NCBI GenBank assembly: GCA_964016885.1
Contig: OZ024745.1
Coordinates: forward strand, 56,668,001 to 56,732,000
DNA: 64,000 bases
DNA from: Eledone cirrhosa
Lineage: Eukaryota
Direction of reading: 5' to 3'
A program made the translations under genes and the position numbers. Of this stretch, positions 1 to 62,643 are shown piece by piece. How positions within the stretch are numbered: the stretch's first letter is position 1; every line of letters begins with the position of its first letter. The notes beneath the pieces were generated by a model that was given only the letters and a program-made list of their open reading frames with translations, was not told the DNA's origin and made no database searches.

Positions 1-1412
1 AATACTCCCGTTTTGCTGCCAGTTGCAGTAGAGGGCTTCGAAGAGATTGGAGAACAAATCTGGCATATTTACGTAAAGCTCGTAGGGCAGACCATCCAAA
101 CCGGGTAACTTGCGCCTCATGCAGCCGAAAAGGGCATCCTGAATCTAGGCTGAAGTAATTGGCCTTTCGCAGCGCCCAGCGTCAGCCGTCGAGAGTTGCA
201 GCAAGCCATCGAGGTAGGGACTGAAGTCCGCCACCCATATCTGACCCGCCACGTCCCCCGAACAACCGAGCAAAATGTTGGCGAAAGGCATCACACATCC
301 TCTTGGAATCGCACAGCTCGTGCCCGTCTCGGTCCGTGAAAGACCGAATCGTGGTTTTATAACCACGCTGCGCCTCTGTCACGTGGGCCCATCGAACAGC
401 TTTGGTTCCCTCGTTTCTCAAAGCATGCGCCTTAGCTCTGACAATGCAACCTTCGTGTTTCTCATTGAAGAAATGGTCTAATGCCATTCTCGCCGCTAGC
501 ACATCAGTTGCAATGACACTACCAATAGCCTCGTCTAACTTATCTACCAACTCCCCCTCCTTTCTATTTTTCTCTAATGGTACTTCTTTGCTAAACTCTA
601 TCGACATTACTCTAATCTCTCTTTTGAGAGCCCCCCACCATCTATTGTTGACGACTCCCCCTGTCAACTGTTTCTTAACTAAATTGTTGACCTGGTCCCT
701 GTAAGCCTTACGTGCCGGAAATGACAAGTGATCTGAATAGGCGACCGTTTCAAAACGTGGACAGCTTACACTATTTCTGTCTATTTTCCTAATGAATATC
801 CTGTCTATATACGATCTAGATGACCCTATGCCGTTAGCCCAGGTCAACACTGGCGCATTAGGGAAATCTAGTCGGTACCTGTCAGACAGTTGGAACTGGC
901 TGATCAGGTTCTTGAGGCTTTTGCACCCCCTGCTCCTATCGCATACTCCCACACAGTCCCAGCGTGCGTCTAAGATGCCGTTCCAGTCTCCCGCCAACAG
1001 TAAAGGGCGAGACGTACCCAGAAAGGCTTCCAGGCATCTAAAGAAGTCCGGCCATCTTGCCACAGTAGGAGCATAGAAGGCCACCAACCAATCTAAAGGC
1101 ACCACCTTCATTATTGTTCACGTCCAGGACCACCAACTTCCCTTCCGGGTCCCGGAAGATCGACCTTACCTCGAGATCCAGGCCTTTCCTAAACAGCACT
1201 TCCACCCCGCCTCCCATTCCCAGCCGGCTAACAGATGCAGAGATCTGATAGTCGTCGAAAATGGAGGCTTGTGCGCGCGTGTCGGAAATCCTGGTCTCGC
1301 TGACTGCAATCACATCCATTTCTATAGACCTGAGGTCGTTGAGCAGGTGACCCTGCTTCCAGGACGATCCCAGGTCTCGAACATTTATGCATCCTACTCT
1401 TAATACGGCCAT
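1..1412 (-). pseudogene. Tx1-type ORF2 N-terminal part (APE endonuclease and start of RT), disrupted
   Basis: ORFs 1038-1412 and 182-1111 carry APE motifs GDWN, YIDR and SDH; frameshifts present. Confidence 0.88.
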
Positions 1413-1443
1413 GTTGGCAGGTTAAACAGAGAGAGAGGAAGGT

Positions 1444-3357
1444 TTACTTACCTTCCGAGCTCTGGTGAAGGTCGGGTTGTACGACCTCCATAGATAGTGG
1501 GCTTTCTTTTGGGAACCCCTTTAAAAGTCTTGAAGTGGGGTTTACGTTCGGGGTTCGAACGTCCCGAAGAAAGCTGTCTAGTATTTCTTTGAATATGTCG
1601 AGCGACATTCGCACCAGAACTAAATCTTCCGGCACGCGAAATGTGCTCGATTTAAACATTTCCCCCTCCTTTTGTATATTTTCACTTCGTGCGACGAGGA
1701 CCATCAGTTCCTTGTTGGCCCTCCTGACGAGCAAGAAGTTGTGTATGTTTTGTTGGTGTGATTTTATTTGTTTGCGTGGCTGTGGTGGTGATGGTTTTGG
1801 TGGTGTTGTTTCGGTTGTATCTGTGTTTGTTGTGACTGCGGTGTCTGTGGTTTCAGATGTTTGTGTGTATATTTGTTCTTGCGTCTGTTTCGGTTGTTTG
1901 CGTTTGGGAGATTCTGGTGATGGTGATGGTGGTGTTGATGTTGGCGTTATTGGAGAGATGTTTGCGTGGGTGGTGTCTGCGTTTTTTTATTCTGGGTGCT
2001 TTTGTGCTTAGTTGAGTTTTTTTTTCTTTTTGTGTTTCCTTTTTGTATTTTGGGGGATTTGGGATTTCCCTCATTTTATGGGTGTGTGTATTTTTTGGGG
2101 GGAGAGGGCGAATTTGACAGCTTTTCTCGTTTCCCCCCTGGGTGGTCAATGTTGGTGGTGGTCTTGCTATTGGTGTTGTTGTTGGTGGTTTTGCCGGTGC
2201 TGGTGTTGGTTGTGGTGCTCGCCCCGGCGTCGGCAGCAGTGGAGCCTTTCGACCCCTTGCTTCTTTCAGCAGTTGAGGGCAGAAGACCCGCAAATGGGTT
2301 TTTTCCCCACAAACAAAACACTGCGGCCTTTTGCCTTCTGTCATAATGTGAATGACCGTCCCATTCTGAAGGCGGATGTTGTCCGGGATTTTCTTCACAT
2401 TCTCGGGCCTGATCTGGAAAGGATCTCCTGGTCAACCCCGGACTATTCCTCTCTGGCAGTTCTGGTCACTTCTATAGGGACTGTATCCGTCCCCTCCACA
2501 ATCACACATCCCAGAAGCCACCACATGTCAAGTCCTGGTGAGATTCTGGGAATGCGGAGACGGGCCGTTCTTTTTCCCATGTGGGAGGGGTACGTTATGA
2601 CCTTGCTGCTTTTGCAAGTCATAGCGTGTTTCATAGCGAGGGCTTCTGACTTGAACAACACCGAAATGGTGCCGTACTGTTTGCCCCTCTCTATGTACTG
2701 GGTGTCTTCTCTGATGCACCTCAGCGCGACTTCGACATCTTCTTCTGGGTTTAAAGCTGCCCTTTTGGTTTTGTGCTGAGATGCATCTATAATGCACCGT
2801 TTTGCGCTCCACTGCCTCAATAACTTCTACCGGGACAGTTAAGTTGGCCCAATTTTGCTCTTGCTTGATGAGCTTCCATGCATGGGCCAACTTTTCATCT
2901 TTGTTTGAGAGGTCCATGTTGAAGCATGGCCTCTTTTTTGCTGCTGCTGCAGCGAAAGTGTTCTTCTTGTTTTCGTTGTGGGTGTTGTTGTCGTTGTTCT
3001 TGTTGGTGTTGTTGTTAGCACTGTCGCTGTTATCATTGTTGTCTTTGTTGCCACCGTTGTTCTCGGTGCAGTTGGTATTGTTGCTGTTGGTGTTGTCGCT
3101 ATTTGTTTTCATGTTAGTGGTGTTGATATTGTTGTATTTGTTATTTTTTTTTTGTTATCTGTATTTTCGTTGTCGCTGTTACTGTCATTTTTTTCAAAAT
3201 TAGAGTTCTTATTGGTATCATTGGTGTCTTTGTTTACCTTGTTTGTGGTGGTGTTTGTGTTATCAATGTGTGTTAATTTCGCTGTAGCGCTCCTCTCAAC
3301 TTCTACGCCGTTGTCTCACGACAGCCGACATATCGCTGGGGGGCGTGGCTCAGCCAT
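1444..3357 (-). pseudogene. Tx1-type ORF1 (gag-like, zinc knuckle), frameshifted
   Basis: ORF pieces 2528-3112, 2443-2820, 1853-2398 and 1444-1734; homologous to the ORF1 at 18031-19793 (IERGKxYG..I..MWW.LG..CxxC). Confidence 0.8.
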
Positions 3358-11994: not shown

Positions 11995-12065
11995 CCAACC
12001 TGAGGTATCTGATTTTTAATGTGATGAATTACCAATGATGGTTGGAAAATCACTGACGAAGGACT
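11995..12065 (+). ncRNA. Permuted hammerhead-like motif, copy A (GAAA mutated to GAAT)
   Basis: CCAACC-TGA-GGTA-TC-TGATTTTT..GAAT-TACC-AATGAT-GGTTGG-AAAATCA-CTGACGA-AGGAC. Confidence 0.55.
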
Positions 12066-12520
12066 ATTTTTATCATATGTAACCCATGTGCAAACCACGC
12101 ACTATTCTTCTTTCTTCTCATGTTTTTTATATATATATTTACCTCGGCTGCGTTTGTCTGTTTCTCTCTTACTGCTTCCCCGCTCTCTCTGTTTCTCTCA
12201 CCTTCTTTCGCCCCCTCTGTCAGTTACACTTTCTCTCGACTGACCGCTTCTTCGCACTTCCACTCACTCACTCTCTGTTTCTCCCCTTCTCACTTCCTCC
12301 CGTTTGGCTAACAGTGGGCCTCTTCTTGCTTACATCTCACTCACGTCGGACGTCTGTACTTTTCGCTCATGAAATCCACCCAGATTATGCTGACCAGGAC
12401 TACCATGTTGCTTGTTTATTTCCTTTCTTTGGTTTGTTTTTATCCTCCTATGTTGTTCACTTGTCCCCCACGTATTACGCGATTACTGGTCCCAATAACT
12501 TTTTTAGATTATTGTTCGCA

Positions 12521-12590
12521 CCAACCTGAGGTATTTGATTTTTAATGCGATGAAATACCAATGATGGTTGGAAAATCACTGACGAAGGAC
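12521..12590 (+). ncRNA. Permuted hammerhead-like motif, copy B (core intact)
   Basis: GGTA-TT (12530-35), stem I TGATTTT/AAAATCA, GAAA 12552-55 plus TACC, CTGACGA 12579-85. Confidence 0.65.
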
Positions 12591-17480: not shown

Positions 17481-18030
17481 GTGAGGCAATAATAATAATG
17501 TGTTAATAATATTAATATTCGATTCGTTTGCAAGCAAACAGCCTCTTTTCGCTTGTGTTCTAGACGACTAACATCATCCTTTGTTTCGGTGCTAACAGAG
17601 AGAAAAACATTCTACCAGTAAGCCAACTATAGTCTGATGAGGCTTTTGATTCCAGAGTCGGGCCCGAGTGATAGAGATTGAACATTGAGCTGATCAATCA
17701 CGAAACGCACGTAACACCTCAATAAACTAAATGATGATTTGACTTCTCAAACTTACTTATTATTACGATATATGTGTGTCTGTCTATCTATCTATCTATC
17801 TATCAAATCTATCTATCTATCTATCTATCTATCGCTGATAGTAGACGTGTGTTACTTCGGCTGCAGCCTTTTGGATTTGTATTACGTTTTTGACTGTGAG
17901 TTTGTTTTTCATTTGCTTTATTTGTGTGACCTAACCTCCCGCCTGGATCTCCAGACGGGTGGTTATTTTATTTTTACCCCTTTTTGGGGGTAAAAACTAC
18001 TTTGAAAAATGTGTATACCAACTTACAATA

Positions 18031-19793
18031 ATGGACACCATACATGAAAACCCAACTTCCACGCCCCCCAGGGAAAGTGATAAAGAGCAACAAGTAACTC
18101 AACCTACTGAAGCTTCCCTTCCCTCGCTTTCGCATGCGAGTATGGAATTGGTTTTGGCGAACAATTCTAAAAACTTGGGTAATAACACAAACAATGGCAA
18201 CAGTAAACTGAAAGAATGTATAAATTACACTGACACCAACAACAGCAACACAAATAACAAAGAAAATAACACAAACACACACGAAAGCGAAAACAGCAGC
18301 AACAAGGACAAAGAAAACAACATAAATGTGAACTCAAAACCCGAAAAACTGGGTGAAAACCCAAAAAACTGTACCGCAAACAACAACAACAAAAATGCAA
18401 TCACCCAAGAAAAAAAGAACAACAGCAACGAAACACACAAAAAAGAACCCACTACACGAATATCCTTTGTCCAGGTCGTTAAGGAGACCTAAACTTTCAC
18501 CCCAGTTGACATCAGTAATGCAGCGGAATTGCTAAAAGAGGGGAGAAAACAGGTGAGCTTTTGGTGAAAACGCTGAATTCACCATCAAATGCGTCGAAAA
18601 AACCAGCTCAATTATCGCATAGCAAAATTGAGCTGGTGTTAAAAGACGCGTTGAAGGACATGATTCTTATAGAGAGAGGGAAGTTATATGGGAGTCTGAC
18701 AATTTTGATGAAGGACCAATTGGTGGCCCAAAAATACTCGGTGTCGCTAATTGTGTCCAAACTACACTTTCTTCCCCACCTACATGGGGAATAAAACTCA
18801 AAAAATAACAAACTCCGGTATACACCCAAATACAAATATGTGGTGGATACTAGGAGGGATACTGGACGACGAAGATGAACTCCTTGATATAGGCAAAGCC
18901 ACCAGGGGCCACTTTTGCGGTATAGGCATACAGGTTCTGGTTCGAATGAAACCGGAACGTATCGCAAAGATACCCCAAAGAGTGTCCCTGGAAGGCTCCC
19001 AATTTATGAACATTGCAATTGAGGATAGGCGGCCCGCTTGCTACCTCTGTGGAGGCAGAGGTCACCTGGGGGCTGCCTGTCCTCAACAAACTAAAAGACC
19101 TTTACTGCCAACACCTGCAAAATCAACATCACCACCACCACCACAACAACAACAACAACAACAAACACAAGTCAACAAAAAACTGAACACGGACCCACCC
19201 AACCCCTCCACACCTAAACAACTCCAACAACATACATAACAAAATCCCAAAATATACAAAGAGGATCCCTTAACGTCAGAAGACGAGCGAAAAAAGAGGA
19301 TCCCTTAACGTCAGAAGACGAGCGAAAAAAATAGAAAACACACCGCAGCCACACACAGGAAAATAACCCCCCCCCCCCCCCAAAAAAAAAAGTCAAATAG
19401 ATACAGAACAAAAACCAATAAAAATTACACACACACAGCTATGCACATACTTCAACACAAAAAAATATAAAACTTGTAAACAAAATTGAACAAAACTCTT
19501 CGATGCAAACCATAGGGCCAAATTTCACGAGGGACACAGAGAACTCCTCTTTAAAAATTATTAAAACTCCGATAGACATTTATATAGAACTAAAAGACAA
19601 TTTTCCTGAGGACGTCCTCCCCCCCCCCCTGTGTAAAACCAATGAATCGAGTCATCTTGAAAAATGTCCCCACTCCAGATACCCACACCAAACCTCAACC
19701 CCACCACACTCTGATGCCCCCCCCCCACCCAACAACCCCTCCGCCACCACAATGGAAATTGTGCGGCCGGGTCCTCGGGACGCAGAGAGGTAG
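18031..19793 (+). pseudogene. Tx1 ORF1, disrupted
   Basis: ORF pieces 17959-18492, 18561-18794, 18751-19239, 19503-19793. Confidence 0.8.
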
Positions 19794-19821
19794 GTGCCTC
19801 CTTTTTCTCTTTACCACCAAC

Positions 19822-22800
19822 ATGGCTGTATTGAGAGTGGCTTGTCTAATTGCGCGTGGCCTGGGGTCATATTGGAAGCAAACAAAACTTCTAAATGACC
19901 TCAGATCACGCTGTTTAAATGTGATGGTCAATTGCGAGGCCCGGATCAGCAGCGTGCGCCAGTTAGCCCCCACTTTTAACGACTTTGAGAGCACGCATCT
20001 CTCTGTCAGCCCGGAGGTGGGAGTGGGGTTGTCGTTCTGCTGCAAAAACATCTGGGTCTCACCGAACAGACGCTACACCTGGACTGGAAGGGTCGACTGG
20101 TGGTTTTAGACCTTTGCAGTGGTGAAGGCGGAGCCTTTAGGCAGGTCGCCGCCTACGCCTCTTTTGGGTCAACGCGGCGGGACTTCTTCCAGCGTCTGGA
20201 GACTTTTCTTTTAGTGGGGGACTGGAATGGTATCCTAGATGCACGTTGGGACTATGTAGGGGCATGTCCCGATAGAGGAGGATGTAACAGTCTCAAGGAG
20301 TTAATCGGCCGATTTGAGCTGGCCAATAGATATCGACTAGATTTTCCGACTGCGCCAACCTGAACTTGGGCAATCCGCAGCGGATCATCTAGGTCGTACC
20401 TAGATAGGGTCCTAGTTAGAAATAAGGATAGGGACCTTTTAAGCTGTCCAGAGATGCTCATGGTTGGCTATTTGGATCACAAATTAGTGACCTGCATACT
20501 CAACCTTGATAGAACCCATAGACAGGGATCCGGTTACTGGAAACTGAACTTGTACTTACCGGCAAGTAAAGTGTACAGGGACCGGATTAGTACTTTAGTT
20601 AAAGAGCGGTTGATGGGAGCGATCGTCAACAGAAGGTGGTGGGGATCTCCCAAAAGAGAGATTAGAGTAGTTTCAATAGGATTTAGTAAGGAGTTGCCTC
20701 AGATAGAAGTAGGAAGGAAGGGAAGTGGCAGATCGTGTAGAAGAGGCAATTAGAAGCGGCGACGTGGCCAGAGTGCTAGCGTCGAGAACGGCCTTGGGCC
20801 AGTTCTTTGACGCGAAGCACGAAGGCTCCGTTGTCCGAAGCAAAATACGTGTTCTAGGAAACGAGGGAACCAAAGCTGTTAGCTGGGCCCGCGTGATAGA
20901 AGCCAAAAGAGGGATTAGATCCACTATCCGGTCTTTGTGAGACCAGGATTGACGGGTGATCCTTGAACCTAAGCAGATGTGTGAGGCCTTTCAAAGGCGA
21001 AGTTCTGCGAGAGGCCGATTTCAGCTGCTGAGATAGAGGACGTGCTGAGCCAATGCGGCAAACGCAAATCCCCGGGTGTCGATGGTCTTCCATACGAACT
21101 ATATCTAGCTATGCCGGACTTGTTCCCCGATCTCCTCGAGGCAGTCTACTGCAACTGGCAACAGAACGGGAGAATTCCCTGTGCTGTGACCAAGGGCGTA
21201 GTCACGCTAGTGAGGAAGGACAAGAACAAGGCGGACGAAATAAGTAATTTCAGGCCCATAACTCTGCTAAATACAGAGTTAAAGATTTTGGCCAAAGTGT
21301 TAGCAAAGAGGTTGGCGCTTGTCGTGGGCAACCTGGTGCGAGATGCGCAGACATGTGCTATCCCGACCAGGTCCATTCACGACAACCTCCACCTTATGCG
21401 ATACATCATAGGGACGGTTGGGAACGAACCCGGCTTTGGTGGAGCCTTGATCAACTTGGATCAATCTAAGGCGTTCGATAGGGTCGACCATGGTTACCTG
21501 GATGCGGTGCTAGCGGCGGCATGTTTCGGACCCGTTTTCAGGGGATGGATCTCTGCCATGCAAAGCAGCCGCATCTGCTCTAGAGTCAAGGTGACGGCTA
21601 CCTCTCGGAGCCGTTCGAAATCACGCGGTCCATCCGACAGGGGTGCCCTCTCTCCTACCTGTATGTGTTGGCCCTCGGGCCGCTGCTGCGGAAGTTGGAG
21701 TTGTTGCAGGGCATCCCTTTGGAACCCGGATTTCGGAAAGCGATATCGGCCTACGCCGATGAGGTAACAGTAATGGTGTCGACCAACTCGGAAATCGGGG
21801 CGATCGGTACCTTACTGGAGGAATACGAAAGGTTTACAGGGGCTAAGCTGAACCGAGACAAGTCTATCGGTTTGCAACTCGGCACATGGAGGGGGAAACC
21901 GATGCCCTCTGATGGCGTCGTCGGACGCTGAACGGAGGGCCCGGTGAAGTTGCTCGCGGTGAAGAAGACCTGGGGTGAGGTAACGAACAGGTTGTTTGCA
22001 CTGACCCAGAAGTGGGCCAAGTGCAAACTATTCCTGAAAGGTCGAGCTGAGATGGCAAACACTTATATAGCGTCCGTCATCTACTACCGCCTGACCGTCG
22101 TGCCTAGCCCAAGGCAAACGCTCACCAAAATGGAGCGCGCACTCTTCCAATTCCTTTGGTGAGGAGATCCATCTGCTGTCAACACCCTTTGAAAGGAGGG
22201 CTGGGGGTGCCGTGGCTGCTGATGCGTAAACACGCATTAAGGCTACGGCACCTCCAGGTATTCCCCACCGGTCAATCGGTGTGGGCCCGATCTATGAGAC
22301 GAACCTTTCCGAGATTCGTCTCACTGAGCTGCAATCCTGGGTCAAGCAAAGACCGAGAAAACTGGGCGCCTGGCACACCGAGTGTGCCCAGGCTCTCTGG
22401 CAGGCGGACCCGGCTATCAGTGGAGCCTCCACCTCGACATTCTATAGAGGGCTGGTGCGCAGCAGGTGCTACGACGCCCTCGGAGATGCCCTAGACATGG
22501 AGGAAGACGAATTGGCCAGTCTGTTTGGTAGGACATTTAAGCCGGGGCCTATGGACAAGTTCCAGAGGTCTCTGGCCTGGCAGTGCTACCGAGGGGCTCC
22601 ACCCGTTCGAGAAAAGCTTTACAGACACGGGCGCCCAGTTAGGGACCCCTCGAAAAAGATCTGTCCCAGATGCGTGCGCGACGAGGAAACCGTCGCGCAT
22701 GCATTGGTACACTGCCCGGGCGTCGCCGATCCGTGGGGCTATGTCGAACGACTGCTGTCACGAGTGGAACCTATCCGGTTGACCACCGAGTCCATTATAA

Positions 22801-23078
22801 CGATCAAGCCACCTCCCCCCTTCAAAAATGAATGAGAGGCGGTGTTTCTGTGCGTAATAGCCATACTGAAAGAGTTTGTATGGTGGAGGCGTTTGAAAGG
22901 GCTGAGGTCGGGCACCTTTCTCTCCGGCCAACAACTGGTCCTTTTCTTCCGATATCATTTGGGAAGAAGGATCAGGATGGAGAGAGAGGTGCTCCACCCC
23001 AGCCAGTTTTATTAAAGGTGGGTGAAAGTGGCGAGAATGGCCCGTGTGAATGGGTCTTCTCTCTATATCAGCCTGTAG
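19822..23078 (+). pseudogene. Tx1 ORF2 (APE-RT-zinc finger), disrupted
   Basis: Starts MAVLRVAC like the ORF2 at 1412; many frameshifts and stops. Confidence 0.88.
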
Positions 23079-27516: not shown

Positions 27517-27883
27517 CATCTCTCTCTTCCTCCCTATACATCTGCTTGTTTCCGGTCTGATCACACACGTGTCGGTAACCCCATTTTGATTAACTTACTC
27601 TTACTCACCCCCTCTCAGTTCCGCTTTCTCCGTCTTTCTCTCTCTCTACATTCATTTTACTGAGATCTCCACGGAAAAACCTTGCCCCATCGGTACAGTA
27701 TAACTTTTTCTATTTTCTCCTCGATTACTTACTTACATGTGCAATTGTCCTGTTTTCCCAACTTCAATTCGGTATGTTTACTTCGGTTTTTCCTCTTTCC
27801 CTTGTTTTATCTTTTTCTTCCTCACTCTTCACTATCTCTTCTGTCCGTCATGGTCTTTTGATGGATAACAGGCCGCGGGCGCG

Positions 27884-27951
27884 CTACGGATCGATGTCCT
27901 GTTTTAAGCTCCGAAACATCTATGATCCGTAGTAAACAGCTGACGAAGGGC
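27884..27951 (+). ncRNA. Permuted hammerhead-like motif, copy C (core and all three stems formable)
   Basis: GATG-TC-CTGTTT-taa-GCTCC-GAAA-CATC-tatga-TCCGTAG-t-AAACAG-CTGACGA-AGGGC. Confidence 0.7.
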
Positions 27952-37713: not shown

Positions 37714-38297
37714 GTATAAAGTGAGGAAGAGCGAGTCAAGTCCAAAAATTTCCATGAATTTAAGTTCGGTGAAATCGTGAACGAGAGAGAATAAAGACCA
37801 TCAAACCAAACCTGCTTGAAATGTGAGCAATGCTTCCTCTTTCTCTGTATCTTTACCCTCTCTAACAGTCACTCTCTCTGTTAGCCTCTTCATCACCCTT
37901 CACTCACTCACTCTCTGTTACTACCTATCCTCCTCCTCCTTCTTCCCGTTTGACCTGTGCGTAATTATTTTCTTTCGCACACTTGACCAGGCCGGTCGGC
38001 ATTTTCTCTCGCTCTCGTCTACGATTTCACAGAACTTATGTTTACCGAATTCACAGACTAGAGCCCTTCTTCCTCCCGTTAGACCTGTGCGAAATTCCTT
38101 CCTTGCTCACATTTCAACCAGGGCTGATGGTCTTTATTCTCTCTCGTTCACGATTTCACCGAACTTAAATTCATGGACATTTTTGGACTTGACTCGCTCT
38201 TCCTCACTTTTCGTTGCTTCACCATCTTTGTTTGTTTACACTCTCGCTGGTCCCTTTATTTAAATGTCCCAACGAATTTCTTTAGCCGTTGCTCGCA

Positions 38298-38369
38298 CCA
38301 ACCGGAGGTATATGGTCTTTAAAGCGAAGAAATACCGATGATGGTTGGAAGATCACTGATGAAGGACCA
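38298..38369 (+). ncRNA. Permuted hammerhead-like motif, copy D
   Basis: CCAACC-GGA-GGTA-TA-TGGTCTT..GAAA-TACC-GATGAT-GGTTGG-AAGATCA-CTGATGA-AGGACCA; lies in a diverged relative (~37830-38420) of the 11764-12655 repeat. Confidence 0.65.
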
Positions 38370-38413
38370 CTTTATTCATATGTAACCCATTTGCAACTCC
38401 GCAGCACGTTTAT

Positions 38414-38464
<51 letters not shown>

Positions 38465-50024: not shown

Positions 50025-50153
50025 TTGTTTATTACATAACTATATATATATATATATATATATATACATGCTTTCACCGTATTTTTGACTAAAGAAATGT
50101 TTAGCCTGATAGTGGGGTTTAGAACCCTCAGAGAAATGGAAAAAGAGGAGTAT

Positions 50154-50224
50154 TGACGTACATGGGAGTCGAACCCACGTCTTTGGTTATCCAGACCACT
50201 GTGCTACCATTACACCAACACATC
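50154..50224 (-). tRNA. tRNA-like pseudogene or SINE head (anticodon loop CTGGATA)
   Basis: GATGTGT TG GTGTAATGGTAGCAC..TGGT CTGGATA ACCA..GTGGG TTCGACT CCCAT GTACGTC A; A and B boxes intact; G-U-rich acceptor stem. Confidence 0.55.
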
Positions 50225-50603
50225 ACCAATCCCCTTCCATTCCAATTTGAAGCTACATACTTAGCAAACAAATGACAATTAAGTATGTTTTGATACAGTG
50301 GGCGAGATTGAAATTAGAAATATAATCTTTCACCGTATTTTTTACTAAAGAAAACTTTAGCCTGATAGTGGGGTTTAGAACCCTTAGAGAAATGAGGGTT
50401 CGACTCCCATGTACGTCAATACTCATCATTTTCCATTTCTCAGAGGGTTCTAGACCCCACTATCAGGCTAACAATATCTTTAGTCAAAAATACGGTGAAA
50501 GCTTATATTTCTAATTTCAAACTCGCTCACGGTTTCAAATCATACTTACTTGACATTTACTTGCTAAGTATGTAGCTTCTAATTTGAATGGAAGATGATG
50601 GGT

Positions 50604-50674
50604 GATGTGTTGGTGTAATGGTAACACAGTGGTCTGGATAAACAAAGATGTGGGTTCGACTCCCATGTACGTCA
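50604..50674 (+). tRNA. tRNA-like pseudogene or SINE head, second copy
   Basis: Same as 50154-50224 with a few substitutions. Confidence 0.5.
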
Positions 50675-50806
50675 ATACTCATCTTTTTCCATTTCTCTGA
50701 GGGTTCTAAACCCCACTATGAGGCTAAACATTTCTTTAGTAAAAAATACAGTGAAAGCTTATATTTCTAATTTCAAACTCGCTCACTATTTCAAAACATA
50801 CTTACT

Positions 50807-51559: not shown

Positions 51560-52599
51560 GTTATAGTGTTCGCATCCACCACCATTTTCACATTTATAAA
51601 AAGGAAGATATAGTTTTTACATCCATCACATAAGTTACGATGATTTTGTATTGAATGTTTGATGCATTAAATTATTGTAGCGTATTCAAGCTCAGTGTTA
51701 TTTAATCCATATTTATAGAATAGGTTCTTTCTGCTGCGAGAATTTACAGTGGTTTATTACCTGGAAGTAGGTGTGTAATTAAGGAGAGGTAACTAGCTGA
51801 TTCTCATAACTAGATTCATTGTTCTTACCTACATTATATGGTGCCTCAATTGAGTCCCTTATATAAAAGGTTATATATTTCTATCCAATTTTCAATACAG
51901 TCTACTCTATCATAATGTATTAAAGGTATCTATAGGAAGTTGATTACTCTTTATTGTACAGCGCCATAATTGAATTTCCCACACAAAGTGCCATATCTTT
52001 ATATAAAAATTCACTGTAAATACAGTCTACTCTCAAAATATATCAGAGGACCAATTAGAATTTTGTCTACATAACCCCTGGTGAGCTATGGGGCAGTGTA
52101 TGGCTGTTTGCATGACAAAATCAAATACATCTCTTGGGTAGACAAATATATCTCTCATTTACAATGTCATTAATCTATCCATCAAGTTATACATGCATCT
52201 ATAATTCATATATAATTCATTGCACCACGCTACATATAAGTTAGACATATCCCTTATGTTAATAAATTAATCCTATATATATCTAATGTTATTACTCCAT
52301 ACATTTAATTACAATTGCATATATAATTCACTGCTGTATCTAGTATTTAAAGTTTATATAAACTGTATTATATTTCTATCCCTATATAATTATAAGTAAT
52401 TGAAAGTAATTATATTAAAAATCGGTGTTTATGGGGGTATTTCTAGGGTATAAAGTTATAGATAGATAAGATGAGGGAAGGCTGGATCAGAGAGTGTGGT
52501 GTAGTCGTGTAAGGCATGCCCTTGAGGTGTGGTGTTAGAAGCGGTGATGTGTTCAAGTCTGACATTGTTATATATTGGGTTTAAAGTTTCGGAAGGAAT

Positions 52600-53900
52600 T
52601 TCGGAAGCGTTGCTGGCACGACGCAAACACTTCCGATTTTTTATTAAGGAGGTTAAGGCTCGAAAAGATTATAGAATGGGTCTCTAGTAGACAGAGGTTA
52701 CAGAATATATTAGGTGGTGTGTATGAGGCCGCCTTACCTATCGCTTCCCATTGAATTGTATATAATCTATTTCTAGTTTTCAGATAGTGTATGTAGCTAG
52801 ATAGTGAAGTGGAGTTGGCTAGACTGTGTTTTTTGAAAGAATGGAGATGTGAATTGCATGTGGTTTTGAAACAGTTCGAAGTAGAGCCTACATAGATTTC
52901 AGAAGAGTTGCTAGTTCTGACTGTGCATGAGTAGATGATCTCCTTGATTGAGGAGTTTTTACCTAAAGGGTAGGTTCTATATGATCTACAGTTACAATTA
53001 TTTTGGATTTTAACCTGTCGGTTATTATGTTATTATGTTGTGTAGAAGTCTGGTTACTAGGCATTGCATTATGGCTATGGGGGTTGTCGACACCAGTGAT
53101 ATTGATTTCATTAGTGTTATTACTATTATTACTATTGATATCAGGGTTGCAGATATTACGTTGTTTTGAAAGTTTAACCCCTGCTGTGTTTTAGTTTGTA
53201 AAAGTAAGTATTAATCTTTCTTTTATTGCTACTAACTATGTGGTATACTATGTTAGGCGTGGTAGAGTAGGAGATTTTAATGGTGTTTTCATTTATAAGA
53301 CTATGGTACTTGTGGCCAGATGGGAAGTTTTTATCCAAGAGTGAGAAGAAAGCCTTAGGTAGGTTGGTAGAGACGTTTAGATTGAAAGGGGGGTTGAAAA
53401 ATGTATTAGTTCTTCTTCTATTTTTGTTTTTTATATCTGTTGAGGTGTTTCCGTTTATGGTATTTTGGTGTCTTCCTTGGTGTGAGTTACGTTTGTTGCT
53501 ACCCTTCGTATTAGTGTGTGTGTCGTTATTACTCTTATTACTATTTTTCCTCATGGACATATTGTGAGAAATAATGTTGTAACTATGTGTTTTTTATAGG
53601 TAGGAACTCGATCTCTTTATTATGTCCTGATCTAGCTAATGTCTGATTATAGTATTGTGAGTTTTTGCTAAATATGGTTTCGTCATAAGATAGATTAGAG
53701 ATTCTATTGGATATTCCTTTAGAGATAGAGTTTAATATTGATCTAGAGTGGTTAGACTTGGTATGTACGTGAATTAGTGTTTCGTTAGGTTTATGGAATC
53801 GTGTATATATTTTAGAGTCTAGGTAAAGGGTAGCATCAAGGAAGTTAACGTTTTTAGTGTTTTTGTCTATGGTGATACTTAGGTTATAGTTTTTTAAAGT
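52600..53900 (-). pseudogene. PLE RT thumb, linker and GIY-YIG endonuclease, disrupted
   Basis: By-eye translation: VNFLDATL..HKPNETLIHVHTKSNH..ISNRISNLS; FFNPPFNLNVSTN..FFSLLDKNFP..INENTIKISYS; CNCR..PLG..IIYSC..IYVG..NSTSLSSYIHYLK..IQW..CNLCLLE. Confidence 0.85.
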
Positions 53901-54100
53901 GTTATCTGCCGCATGTATTTTTATTTTAATTTTAATTTTAATTTTAATTTTAATTTTGGTTTTGATTTTAAATTTAAATTGGTGTACACATATAGTATAG
54001 TATAATATAAGTCACTCCACTGTACATCAATATATATATATGTAGCTGTATGTCTCTTGCGTTGGATAGGAGGTCAATTATATGTACAAGCATTGAAAAA

Positions 54101-59821: not shown

Positions 59822-62643
59822 GGCTTTCTTTATTAACCACAAGGGTTTACATAAAGTAATCATTAAGAACAGTACAGGACAATGCAGGACGGTACAAATG
59901 GGCATTTCTGCGTGTAAAAAACAAAAACAGAGGATGTAACAAAAAAATAACAATAGAAAATTCCCCAATAGGTGGGGGGGGGGGGGGGGAGAATACCGAG
60001 GGACATTCGTGGAGGAGAAAGCCCATTAAAAAGCCAGTGACCCTGACAACCAGAGCAAGTGCCTGTTTCCCGGTTATCCACCTTTAATTTACAGACACAT
60101 ACTTAGAGTAGGCCCATTCACTCGGGCCATTCTTGCCTCTCTCACTCATCTTTCAACAAAATACTGGGAAGAGAGCACGTCCCTCTCTACCCTGATTTTC
60201 CTTTTCAAATGAAATTTGAAAAAGTTAATCAGCGCATCACCGAAGAGGTAAGTGCTCGTCTTCAGCCTTTTCAAACGTGTCCACCAAACTATCTCTTTCG
60301 CGATGGCCACCAGGCAGATAAAAATTGCCTGCCCTTCCCGGTTATAGGAAGCGGGCGGGGCAATCCTCACGATGGACTCAGCTGAAAGCTGGATCCGTCC
60401 TACACGCGACAGCAGGTGTTCGACATAAACCCACAAGTTAGCAATGGTCGGACACTGGACGAGTGCGTGCAGGACGGTTTCGTCGCCCTGCGCGCATCTC
60501 GGACATGACCGGCTGACGGCACCCCCATGCCTGTAGAGTTTATCCCGAACTGGCAAAGCTTCTCGGTAGTACTGCCAGGCCAGGGATTTCTGGAAGTTGT
60601 CCATAGGCCCCGGCCCGAAAGTTCTTCCGAAGAGATTGGCTAGTTGATTTTCGTCGACGCCTAGAGTATCCCCAAGTACATCGTCGCTCTTCCCCTCCAC
60701 TAATCCTCTATAGAACGCCAAGATGGAGTTTCCACCGATCACATTGCCCGAGTGGTCGAGGGCTGTGAGCGCCTGAAGTCATTCCAGTCTCGAAGCGCTC
60801 CCTCTCGGTCTTCAAATGACCCAGTACTGGAGCTCCGTCAAGGAGACGAGCTGGTGTAAGACGCGTCTAGCAAACGGCGACTACACCTGATCACCGTCGA
60901 GGAAGAGGTGGAGATGTCATAGCCTGAGCGCGTGTCTGCGCTTCATCAGCCACGGCATGCCCAGACCTCCACGTAGCGGGTGTTGACAGCAGATAGAACG
61001 CCTGACTATTGAAGCGCGTCCCTTCCACAAAAAGCGAAAGAGCAAACGCTCCAGTGCAGTCAGGCAAGGCCTAGGACAAGCCACGACGGTCAGGCGGTAG
61101 TAGATGATGGACGCGATGTTCGCGTTAGCCACCTCCGGTGAACCTTTCAGGGATAGCTTCCTCTCCGCCCATTTCTGGGTAAGAGAAGCCACCCTGCTCG
61201 TCACCTCGTCCCTGTTTTTTCCGTCTAGAGGTCCGGACCGAACTAAACCCCTAGCAATTTAACCGGTCCGTCCGTCCAGCGCCCGACGACACTGTTGGAC
61301 GGCATGGACATGCCTCTGCAGGTGCCGAGCTGCAGGCCCACTAACTCTTCCTGGTTGATCATTGCTCCTGTCACCGCTTCGTATTATCTTAGTGTAGTGC
61401 CGATCGCCTCGATGTGTTTGGCGTTCGACACCACTACGGTGACGTCCGCATGTTCAGACAAGGATCTTCCGCATTCTAGTTCGCGTGGGACCCCCCTCAA
61501 CATCTCCAGTTTGTGCAGTAATGGCTCGATAGTCAATACGTACAAGAAGGACGAGAGGGGAAATCCTGTGCGGACCGAGCGCATGATGTTGAACGGTTCC
61601 GAAAGGTGACCGTTCACTCTCACTACAGAGCAGATGTCGCTGTGCATGGCAACGATCCAGCCTCTGAAGATGGGCCCAAAGCCAGCCGCCCTCAGGACTG
61701 CCGCTAGGTAACGATGGTCGACCCTATCGAAAGCTTTCGACTGATCTAAATTGATCAAGGACCCACCTGCGCCTCTCCCACCAGACCACCAGCGACAAGC
61801 GCCAACCTCTTTGCTAGCACCTTGGCCAAAATCTTTAACTCTGTGCTTAGCAGAGTTATGGGCCTGAAATTATATATGTTATCCCACTTGTTCGGATTCT
61901 CTCTCAGCAGCGCCACCGCTCCTCGGCTCACAGAACTAGGAATTCTCCCGTTCTGTTGCCAGTTGCAGTAGACGTCCGCCAAGAGGCCTCCGAAAAAGAC
62001 AGGCATCTGTACCTAAAGTTCATAGGTCAGAACATCCAAACCAAACGATTTACCCATTATGCAGCCAGTCATTGCCTCCCGTACTTCAGTGGCTGTTATC
62101 GGCTTTTCCCAACACTCCGCCTCAGTGGCCGAGAGCCGCGGCAGTCCGTCGAGGTAGACACTAAAGTTCATCCCTCGATCCCGCCCGCCGCTGTCCCCGA
62201 ACAGCTGAGCGAAGTGTCGCTGAAAAGCTTCGTACATTTTCCCGGGATCGAGTAGCATGCGCCCGTCGTGGTCCACCAAAGACCGGATCATGGCTTTGTT
62301 GCCACGACGCGCCTCAGCCACTCGGGCCCATTGAACGGCTTTCGTCCCCTCGTGTCTGAGAGCACACACCCTACCTCTGACAACGTACCCTTCGTGCTTT
62401 GCATTGAAGAATTGGTCAAGGGCCAATTTCGCCGCAAGTACGTCGGTCGCGATGCCTTTGCTAAGCGCCTCATCTAATTTTCTAACTAGTTCTCCCTCTA
62501 CTCTCTTTTTCTCTATAGCTAAAGCCTTACTAAATCTAATGGACTCTATTCTAATCGCTCCTTTCAGAGCAAACCACCACTTGTTGTGATGATGGCCCCC
62601 GTCAACGGCCGCTTAACTAGTTCGCTAATCCGGTCTCTGTAGC
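59821..62643 (-). mobile_element. 5'-truncated Tx1-clade LINE (RT, C-terminal zinc finger, 3' UTR)
   Basis: FRPITLL, INLDQSKAFDRVDH, HADVTV, CPRC..ETVLHALVQC; 3' end AATAAAGAAAGCC followed by (ATT)n at 59773-59820. Confidence 0.9.

Follow-up and report, generated by a model that had tools for sequence, protein, structure and literature searches.

Introduction

The DNA analysed here, a 64,000-nt stretch of the Eledone cirrhosa genome that we call the window, carries at 38.3 kb the conserved blocks of a hammerhead ribozyme in a permuted order, with a kink-turn (k-turn) apparently built into stem III. An earlier note on this DNA proposed that the k-turn supplies a sharp bend and could make cleavage depend on a protein of the L7Ae family (15.5K/Snu13). 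The locus raises the questions of whether such a fold would cut its own RNA, what stands in the place of stem II and what the k-turn contributes. Permuted hammerheads of type SGC have been described by Eckert et al. (2023); according to the available text, the permutation is non-circular, activity was validated in vitro and the examples came from metatranscriptomes only (PMC10085705).

Results

The hammerhead core and its copies in the window

A pattern scan of the window revealed four copies in which UH, GAAA and CUGANGA follow one another in this order together with stems I and III, U16.1 lying at 12008, 12534, 27897 and 38311. The order cleavage site, GAAA, CUGANGA is that of type SGC, in agreement with the permuted topology proposed earlier, and a short linker leads from stem I to the G block. 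In the 38.3 kb copy, stem I is formed by 38313–19 and 38349–55 and stem III by 38307–11 and 38332–36; by analogy with the ribozymes of Eckert et al. (2023), the cut is predicted to fall after A17 at 38312. All the core letters, C3–A9 (CUGANGA), G12–A14, A15.1–U16.1 and H17, are present, and stems I and III flank them in register and with covariation. The features are collected in Table 1. The stem I and stem III variants previously quoted for the 27.9 kb copy were found letter for letter. Judged by its GAAU block, the 12.0 kb copy of family C is probably dead.

Table 1. Predicted fold at 38.3 kb, its further copies in the window and the repeat that carries it
Feature	Position	Strand	Basis
Inverted 5′ fragment of family A element	37718..37830	−	Sequence comparison
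5′-truncated copy of non-coding 639-nt family A unit; 3′ end joins (TA)n tract	37831..38421	+	96% to natural monomer, L027 positions 51–641
Predicted type-SGC hammerhead fold, helix P 5′ strand to helix P 3′ strand	38266..38367	+	Letters, covariation
Helix P 5′ strand GTCC; partner GGAC 38364–67	38266..38269	+	3/4 pairs change on both sides
Hairpin H (CAACG/CGTTG); missing in families F and G	38270..38291	+	Lineage comparison
Helix Q 5′ strand TCGC; partner GCGA 38324–27 (strand before GAAA)	38293..38296	+	4/5 pairs change on both sides
Helix X 5′ strand (NC arm of k-turn); partner 38343–48	38298..38303	+	98% of cells paired
k-turn non-bulged strand G3n G2n A1n	38304..38306	+	Letters, lineage comparison
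Stem III 5′ strand, U16.1 (38311), A17 (38312)	38307..38312	+	Letters
Stem I 5′ strand and conserved UAA linker	38313..38322	+	Letters, covariation
GAAA block (38329–32), stem III 3′ strand, 3-nt bulge GAU (38337–39), G1b A2b U3b (38340–42)	38329..38342	+	Letters, lineage comparison
Stem I 3′ strand and CUGAUGA block (38356–62)	38349..38362	+	Letters, covariation
Family C copy, first in 526-nt tandem pair; GAAU in place of GAAA	11962..12064	+	Sequence
Family C copy, second in 526-nt tandem pair; U:U box C/D-like k-turn	12488..12590	+	Sequence
Family B copy (27.9 kb); common fold, plain 3-nt bulge, without tandem G·A	27845..27950	+	Sequence

The spacing between blocks had been described as preserved in all copies. 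This holds for the interval from GAAA to CUGANGA, which is nearly fixed at 23 nt (24 nt in the autonomous family O, see below), and not for the linker between the cleavage site and GAAA, which is 16 nt long in the 38.3 kb copy, 14 nt in the 27.9 kb family and 17 nt in family H.

Conservation was assessed over representatives of 23 lineages, 16 from this genome and 7 from metagenome records; these are related, and counts over them are not independent. CUGANGA is exact in 21 of the 23 and A15.1–U16.1 is invariant, the core letters having been part of most searches. Position N7 varies (U in 14, C in 6, G in 2 and A in 1), as does H17, which is A in 14, C in 6, U in 3 and never G, with H17 imposed by the search pattern for the seven metagenome rows. 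Many copies of family H (loci L181–L200) read CCGAUGA in place of CUGAUGA (U4C) or have other core changes, and U4C is apparently a trait of this subfamily. The Rfam hammerhead models gave no match at E values up to 1 in the 64-kb window or in five loci, as is expected from the permuted order of the blocks.

The k-turn on stem III

The 38.3 kb copy contains each element of a standard k-turn, namely a C helix, a 3-nt bulge, the pairs G1b·A1n and A2b·G2n, and an NC helix. Its letters are as the earlier note had quoted them, and the 12.0 and 12.55 kb copies carry UGA/GAU. The motif does not extend to the 27.9 kb family (family B), which at the same position has no G·A pairs and a plain 3-nt bulge flanked by Watson–Crick pairs. 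The bulge, the two G·A pairs and C:G at −1 are shared with the standard and Kt-23-type k-turns described in the available literature (PMC8191799, PMC4382518, PMC5689011, PMC5061560).

Across the 23 lineages, G1b and A2b are invariant, A1n is found in 22 and G2n in 19, where 1b and 2b were imposed by the pattern for pattern-found rows and 1n and 2n for the seven metagenome rows. In the rows from this genome, for which the non-bulged strand was not imposed, A1n occurs in 15 of 16 and G2n in 12 of 16. All 23 lineages have a purine at L2, 21 have C:G at −1b:−1n and 15 have U at L3. The 3b:3n pair drifts through U:U, C:U, U:G, C:G, C:A and A:G; 2n is U in three families (among them K and G) and A in one (O), both of them known Kt-23 variants in these papers.

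According to Lilley and colleagues, Mg2+ alone tends to be enough for folding when 3n is G or 3b is C; in the parts available of this body of work, a Watson–Crick 3b:3n pair or G:C at −1b:−1n blocks ion-induced folding, and U:U at 3b:3n with C:G at −1b:−1n allows it moderately (PMC8191799, PMC4382518, PMC5689011, PMC5061560). By these rules, the 38.3 kb k-turn, with C:G at −1b:−1n and U:G at 3b:3n (3n = G), belongs to the ion-folding class and is predicted to fold in Mg2+ alone. The blocking elements of box C/D-type k-turns (Watson–Crick or G–U 3b:3n, G:C at −1b:−1n) are absent from it, and G:C at −1b:−1n is present in no lineage. Twelve of the 23 lineages, that of the 38.3 kb copy included, fall into the ion-folding class, six have U:U and five a Watson–Crick pair.

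Because 3b:3n and 2n vary and family B has a plain bulge, we conclude from the sequences compared that the conserved feature is a bend at a fixed place. A bend with an architectural role, as had been suggested, is the best reading; the k-turn likely serves as an elbow in the structure and not as a protein-requiring switch. A comparable exchange of k-turns for other kinks has been described in RNase P and lysine riboswitches (PMC8191799, PMC4382518, PMC5689011, PMC5061560).

A four-way junction in place of stem II

A classical stem II, made from the strand after A9 and the strand before G12, does not form: at most one of its pairs, 10.1–11.1, is available, and this in 12 of the 23 lineages. Comparison of the lineages gives instead a seven-helix fold with a four-way junction in the stem II position. 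Stem III runs through the 3-nt bulge into helix X, the strands of which continue into stem I and helix Q. Helix P pairs the strand after CUGANGA with an upstream strand, and helix Q pairs the strand before GAAA with the strand just 5′ of X; hairpin H, where present, sits between the strands of P and Q. No nucleotide is shared among P, Q, X, I and III, so that these helices do not compete.

The paired positions number 115 of 115 for stem III, 130 of 138 for X, 136 of 138 for stem I and 103 of 115 for Q, against maxima of 101, 100, 96 and 76, respectively, in shuffles that ignore relatedness. In an alignment of 18 representatives from this genome, in which the family B row is partly out of register, 87% of cells are paired and 25 of 33 pairs change on both sides. 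An alignment of 19 rows including metagenome sequences has 94% of cells paired and 19 of 23 pairs changing on both sides, and only 31–46% of cells are paired when its registers are slid. The folding energy of the 38.3 kb sequence, computed without pseudoknots, is no better than that of shuffles (z = −0.18).

The earlier note had suggested that a multi-way junction replaces a simple stem II, and covariation bears this out. Of the two helices that it offered, the pairing of GCGA with upstream TCGC is helix Q. Alignment of genomic copies does not uphold the other, between the CUGANGA tail and TGGTCC at 38248: this pairing is private to the 38.3 kb copy, TGGTCC reading TGTTCC in 16 of the 17 plus-strand family A copies compared (13 minus-strand loci were left out), and the conserved partner is GTCC in helix P.

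Position 11.1 has a partner, in the upstream strand or at 10.1, in 20 of the 23 lineages, the 38.3 kb subfamily being one of the three in which it has no Watson–Crick or G·U partner. The hammerhead G–C11.1 pair is rebuilt through the upstream strand in six lineages. No unpaired base separates P, H and Q in the autonomous family O and in several metagenome families; there P comprises 9–12 bp including 10.1, and an upstream G is the partner of C11.1. Many non-coding lineages of this genome have the junction displaced by one step, and in these 10.1 can pair with 11.1. Two other candidates were set aside. A conserved 10.1–11.1 pair fails as a general rule, occurring in 11 of the 16 lineages of this genome but in 1 of the 7 metagenome rows, and a simple stem II (GGGC/GCTC) in the 27.9 kb copy depends on a private change of GCGCC. 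We infer that helix Q, stacked on the A9·G12 pair, takes over the part of stem II through an exchange of strands; the literature searched yielded no tested hammerhead of this kind.

Like the HRIMA-1 kind, the fold has the S–G–C order with all the core letters and with stems I and III, and about 3 nt link stem I to the strand that precedes GAAA. HRIMA-1-like ribozymes have a direct stem II and an extra helix between stems I and II, whereas here P, H, Q and X replace both; none is reported from the genome of a known organism, whereas the present fold sits in retrotransposons; and stem III is here a k-turn arm, whereas neither a kink nor a k-turn is mentioned in the available text and supplement of Eckert et al. 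(PMC10085705). Lacking a classical stem II, the fold was not filed under the HRIMA-1 kind.

Non-coding repeat units

In family A, to which the 38.3 kb copy belongs, two main end sites are joined to (TA)n, and the 5′ ends are variable and often inverted. A second unit on the same strand occurs at 619–709 nt in 12 of 30 family A loci. Unit lengths across the non-coding families are 470–706 nt with one ribozyme motif per unit, as in retrozymes, and no remnant of a reverse transcriptase (RT) with a restriction-like endonuclease (RLE) was found in the loci of these families (L001–L282). The window copies are, on this evidence, non-coding derivatives that are often tandem elsewhere.

Nearly all genomic copies read intact through the predicted cut site, so that either cleavage is slow or ligation or template jumping would have to come after it. 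The 5′ junctions are not enriched at the cut site: among 49 unique ones, counted by hand in the first 100 of 2,645 and confounded by TA microhomology, 12 lie there and 17 at the UAA linker.

Penelope was considered as the autonomous partner and rejected. The window and 22 of 252 loci contain Penelope-like relics, yet in none of the 252 does a Penelope ORF immediately precede the fold in the same orientation; the co-location of relics and fold fits shared (TA)n targets. One such relic is a broken Penelope-like ORF on the minus strand at 52568–54011 of the window, 35–54% identical to a better preserved relic in L094; from its motifs we take it to comprise the end of an RT and a GIY-YIG-like part, and it had no Pfam match. 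A Penelope-like family ends in a minimal type I hammerhead-like motif followed by (TA)n (L094:8160–8240 and L040:1730–1800, minus strand). The window also contains, at 50059–50769, an inverted tRNA-like pair (50154–50224, minus; 50604–50674, plus) that is probably a tRNA-derived SINE, and fragments of other, APE-type LINEs at 182–3154, 17935–22835 and 60146–62612.

Copy number in the genome

The pattern GAAA-N7-GA-N14-CTGAYGA has 24,051 exact matches in the 3.0-Gb genome and 219 in a reversed control, a 110-fold excess. Of the two spacings counted, that one base shorter gave 1,138 matches against 69 in the control, to which small subfamilies, deletions and an unrelated repeat of palindromic form contribute. 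An abundant palindromic repeat, TCATCAGGAA-N9-TTCCTGATGA, was seen in many places in the genome, matching on both strands. First-look candidates for the three window types numbered 1,903, 1,183 (family B) and 2,102, and the loci recovered contain at least 15 non-coding lineages. From the sequence counts we conclude that this genome contains no fewer than 24,000 copies of the fold.

A looser scanner gave 11 matches in 400 kb of evenly spaced genome stretches and none in their reverse; seven of the 11 belong to one ordinary type I tandem repeat. At L124:300–3400, seven tandem units of 482–492 nt each contain CUGAUGA, a hairpin and GAAA in type I order, probably an ordinary retrozyme array.

Autonomous carriers

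Metagenome contigs gave 43 matches to the common spacing pattern, of which 17 pair almost fully (14–16 of 16) and the rest at 12 or less; three matches in viral contigs did not pair. The 17 well-pairing folds are unrelated in sequence and come from other records. In several of these contigs the fold starts a few tens of bases or less past the stop codon of an RLE-type ORF, and L295 runs past the fold into the N-terminal zinc finger of the next copy. A full-length relative of the ORF is an RT of 1,132 amino acids that matches RVT_1 and has R2 RT as its best PDB matches. Related RT proteins of about 1,130 amino acids are annotated in fishes and amphioxus, and the metagenome retrotransposons with the fold likely come from fish.

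The autonomous carriers combine RT and C-terminal RLE in one ORF; this connection to retrotransposons is absent from the earlier note. We take the latter to be an RLE from its PD...E..K motifs, no profile having matched, and we call the elements HERO-like on the strength of ELTVPWEE, PVEVGCRGF and N-terminal zinc-finger motifs that we presume to be diagnostic, not from a tree.

A search of this genome by protein only gave 150 matches, of which the best 30 loci and 40 weaker ones, picked for reaching the C-terminus, were examined. The fold follows the ORF in sense in 19 of the 30 and in 7 of the 40, and was found on the antisense strand in none of either set. Most copies of family O end about 40 nt past CUGAAGA, two extending into the 5′ region, and the autonomous L359 of this family is a partial tandem with a unit of 3,599 nt. 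Other RLE families of this genome have, by eye, degenerate folds with GA/GA or other internal loops. Several RLE matches at L403 and the C18/C28 copies had identical scores, and their tails contain a fold with a seemingly plain 3-nt bulge. No sequence similarity was found between the family O UTR and the non-coding families, so that the descent of the latter from RT–RLE elements, which we infer, is traced through the common fold and its spacing.

Discussion

The structure at 38.3 kb is, by its sequence, a seven-helix fold with all the hammerhead core letters in type-SGC order. We consider it quite probable that this fold undergoes hammerhead-like cleavage, and on balance likely that the 38.3 kb copy is an active self-cleaving ribozyme from the 3′ UTR of an RT–RLE (HERO-like) retrotransposon.

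The same features might belong to a non-cleaving docking structure for the RT of the element, perhaps descended from a hammerhead, in which the k-turn shapes a protein-binding surface. Such a structure would suit the engagement of the 11.x strand by helix Q instead of a classical stem II, the position of the fold in the 3′ tail of R2-like elements, 40–80 nt from their 3′ ends, and the integrity of the copies across the cleavage site. The variation, however, follows hammerhead chemistry, N7 being free, H17 never G, A15.1–U16.1 invariant, and stems I and III in exact register, and the absence of competition for nucleotides among P, Q, X, I and III also speaks against it. Penelope-like elements, moreover, are reported in the sources available to bear hammerheads upstream of an internally primed tail. 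A purely docking role is therefore unlikely in our judgement, and docking and cleavage are not exclusive.

An active ribozyme gated by 15.5K/Snu13, which would cleave efficiently only with the host protein on the k-turn, seems quite unlikely. Binding of the protein is plausible given U at L3 in 15 of the 23 lineages; most lineages have a standard k-turn sequence, the box C/D-like AUGAU/CUGA with U:U occurs in 6 of 23, most k-turns described in the available literature fold on binding of L7Ae, and engineered hammerhead–k-turn fusions are described as binding L7Ae resin (PMC9521606). Dependence is another matter and is doubtful because the published rules predict folding in Mg2+ alone: the ion-folding classes (3n = G, or 3b = C without a Watson–Crick pair) cover 12 of the 23 lineages, and even U:U with C:G at −1b:−1n folds moderately by those rules. 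Families K and G with 2n = U, O with 2n = A and B with its plain bulge also amplify, and loss of a required site by amplifying families would be unexpected. The part of the earlier proposal that concerned binding may stand; a strict need for 15.5K/Snu13 is weakly supported and is not the best reading.

It is hardly credible that a decayed repeat resembles a k-turn and junction by chance: most copies are neutral relics and the 38.3 kb sequence has no unusual folding energy, but covariation in every helix and the excess over the control refute this explanation, and matching spacing recurs in unrelated sequences elsewhere.

If the preferred reading of an active ribozyme is right, the k-turn would fold the stem III arm back and so bring X to the distal ends of stem I and Q, its own folding being driven by Mg2+ and the tertiary context with no obligatory protein, and Q would stack on A9·G12 in place of stem II. 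Cleavage after H17 between tandem units would release monomer RNA whose ends are held by about 20 bp, the products staying paired through P, Q, X and III, and ligation could close these paired ends into a circle, or template jumping could pass across them. The RT of the element would start about 70–110 nt downstream of the cut at (TA)n targets, giving 5′-truncated and partial-tandem copies. Insertions start downstream of the cut and read through it, some of them over a length exceeding one unit, which would imply a template that is circular, re-ligated or uncleaved, or that is crossed by template jumping.

Much of this resembles the retrozymes and the pLTRs of Penelope-like elements, with which the present units share non-coding tandem units of a few hundred nucleotides with one hammerhead each, partial tandems, a 3′ end shortly downstream of the ribozyme and AT-rich targets. 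Penelope-like elements also provide a precedent for internal priming near a hammerhead. Retrozymes differ in having type I hammerheads tied to Penelope-like elements, whereas the SGC fold goes with RT–RLE carriers; and in type I retrozymes a protein ligase rather than the ribozyme appears to close the circle, so that self-ligation can only be supposed here (for all of these, as far as the sources are available, PMC7229834, bioRxiv 2026.07.22.740005, PMC11167929). We offer tentatively the wider possibility that HERO-like elements, from fish to this animal, replicate through an RNA circle by means of a strand-exchange SGC hammerhead whose k-turn arm clamps both products and which cuts and re-ligates, with 15.5K/Snu13 tuning the balance between the two reactions in some lineages.

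The carriers share with the HERO clade a single ORF of about 1,130 amino acids with RT and C-terminal RLE; HERO elements are described as mostly non-specific, with some microsatellite-targeting families, and the R2 ribozyme is HDV-like and lies at the 5′ end, whereas the present one is hammerhead-like and lies in the 3′ tail (available parts of PMC4640811, PMC12222951, PMC7650587, PMC5678591). In the literature covered, no ribozyme is reported for HERO, and the only k-turns in hammerheads are the engineered affinity tags in the available text of PMC9521606, none being natural. Nor was a report of the present fold found there, subscription journals and Repbase lying outside this coverage. The architecture, hammerhead-like with a k-turn and tied to RT–RLE retrotransposons, is real and, it appears, undescribed.

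What protein binding contributes can be tested directly on the natural variants, which have a standard k-turn, a Kt-23-type k-turn or a plain bulge. The fold also offers one answer to the geometric question posed by Eckert et al., namely by what path stem III brings its far end to stems I and II. If the fold cleaves, it would be, within the literature searched, both the first type-SGC hammerhead in an animal genome, where its copies number tens of thousands, and the first hammerhead to have a k-turn naturally. Strand exchange would then be a way of building stem II, and because standard hammerhead patterns overlook this form, genome counts of ribozymes would be too low. A group of retrotransposons related to R2 would gain a 3′ ribozyme and, with it, a tandem or circular life cycle like that of Penelope-like elements.
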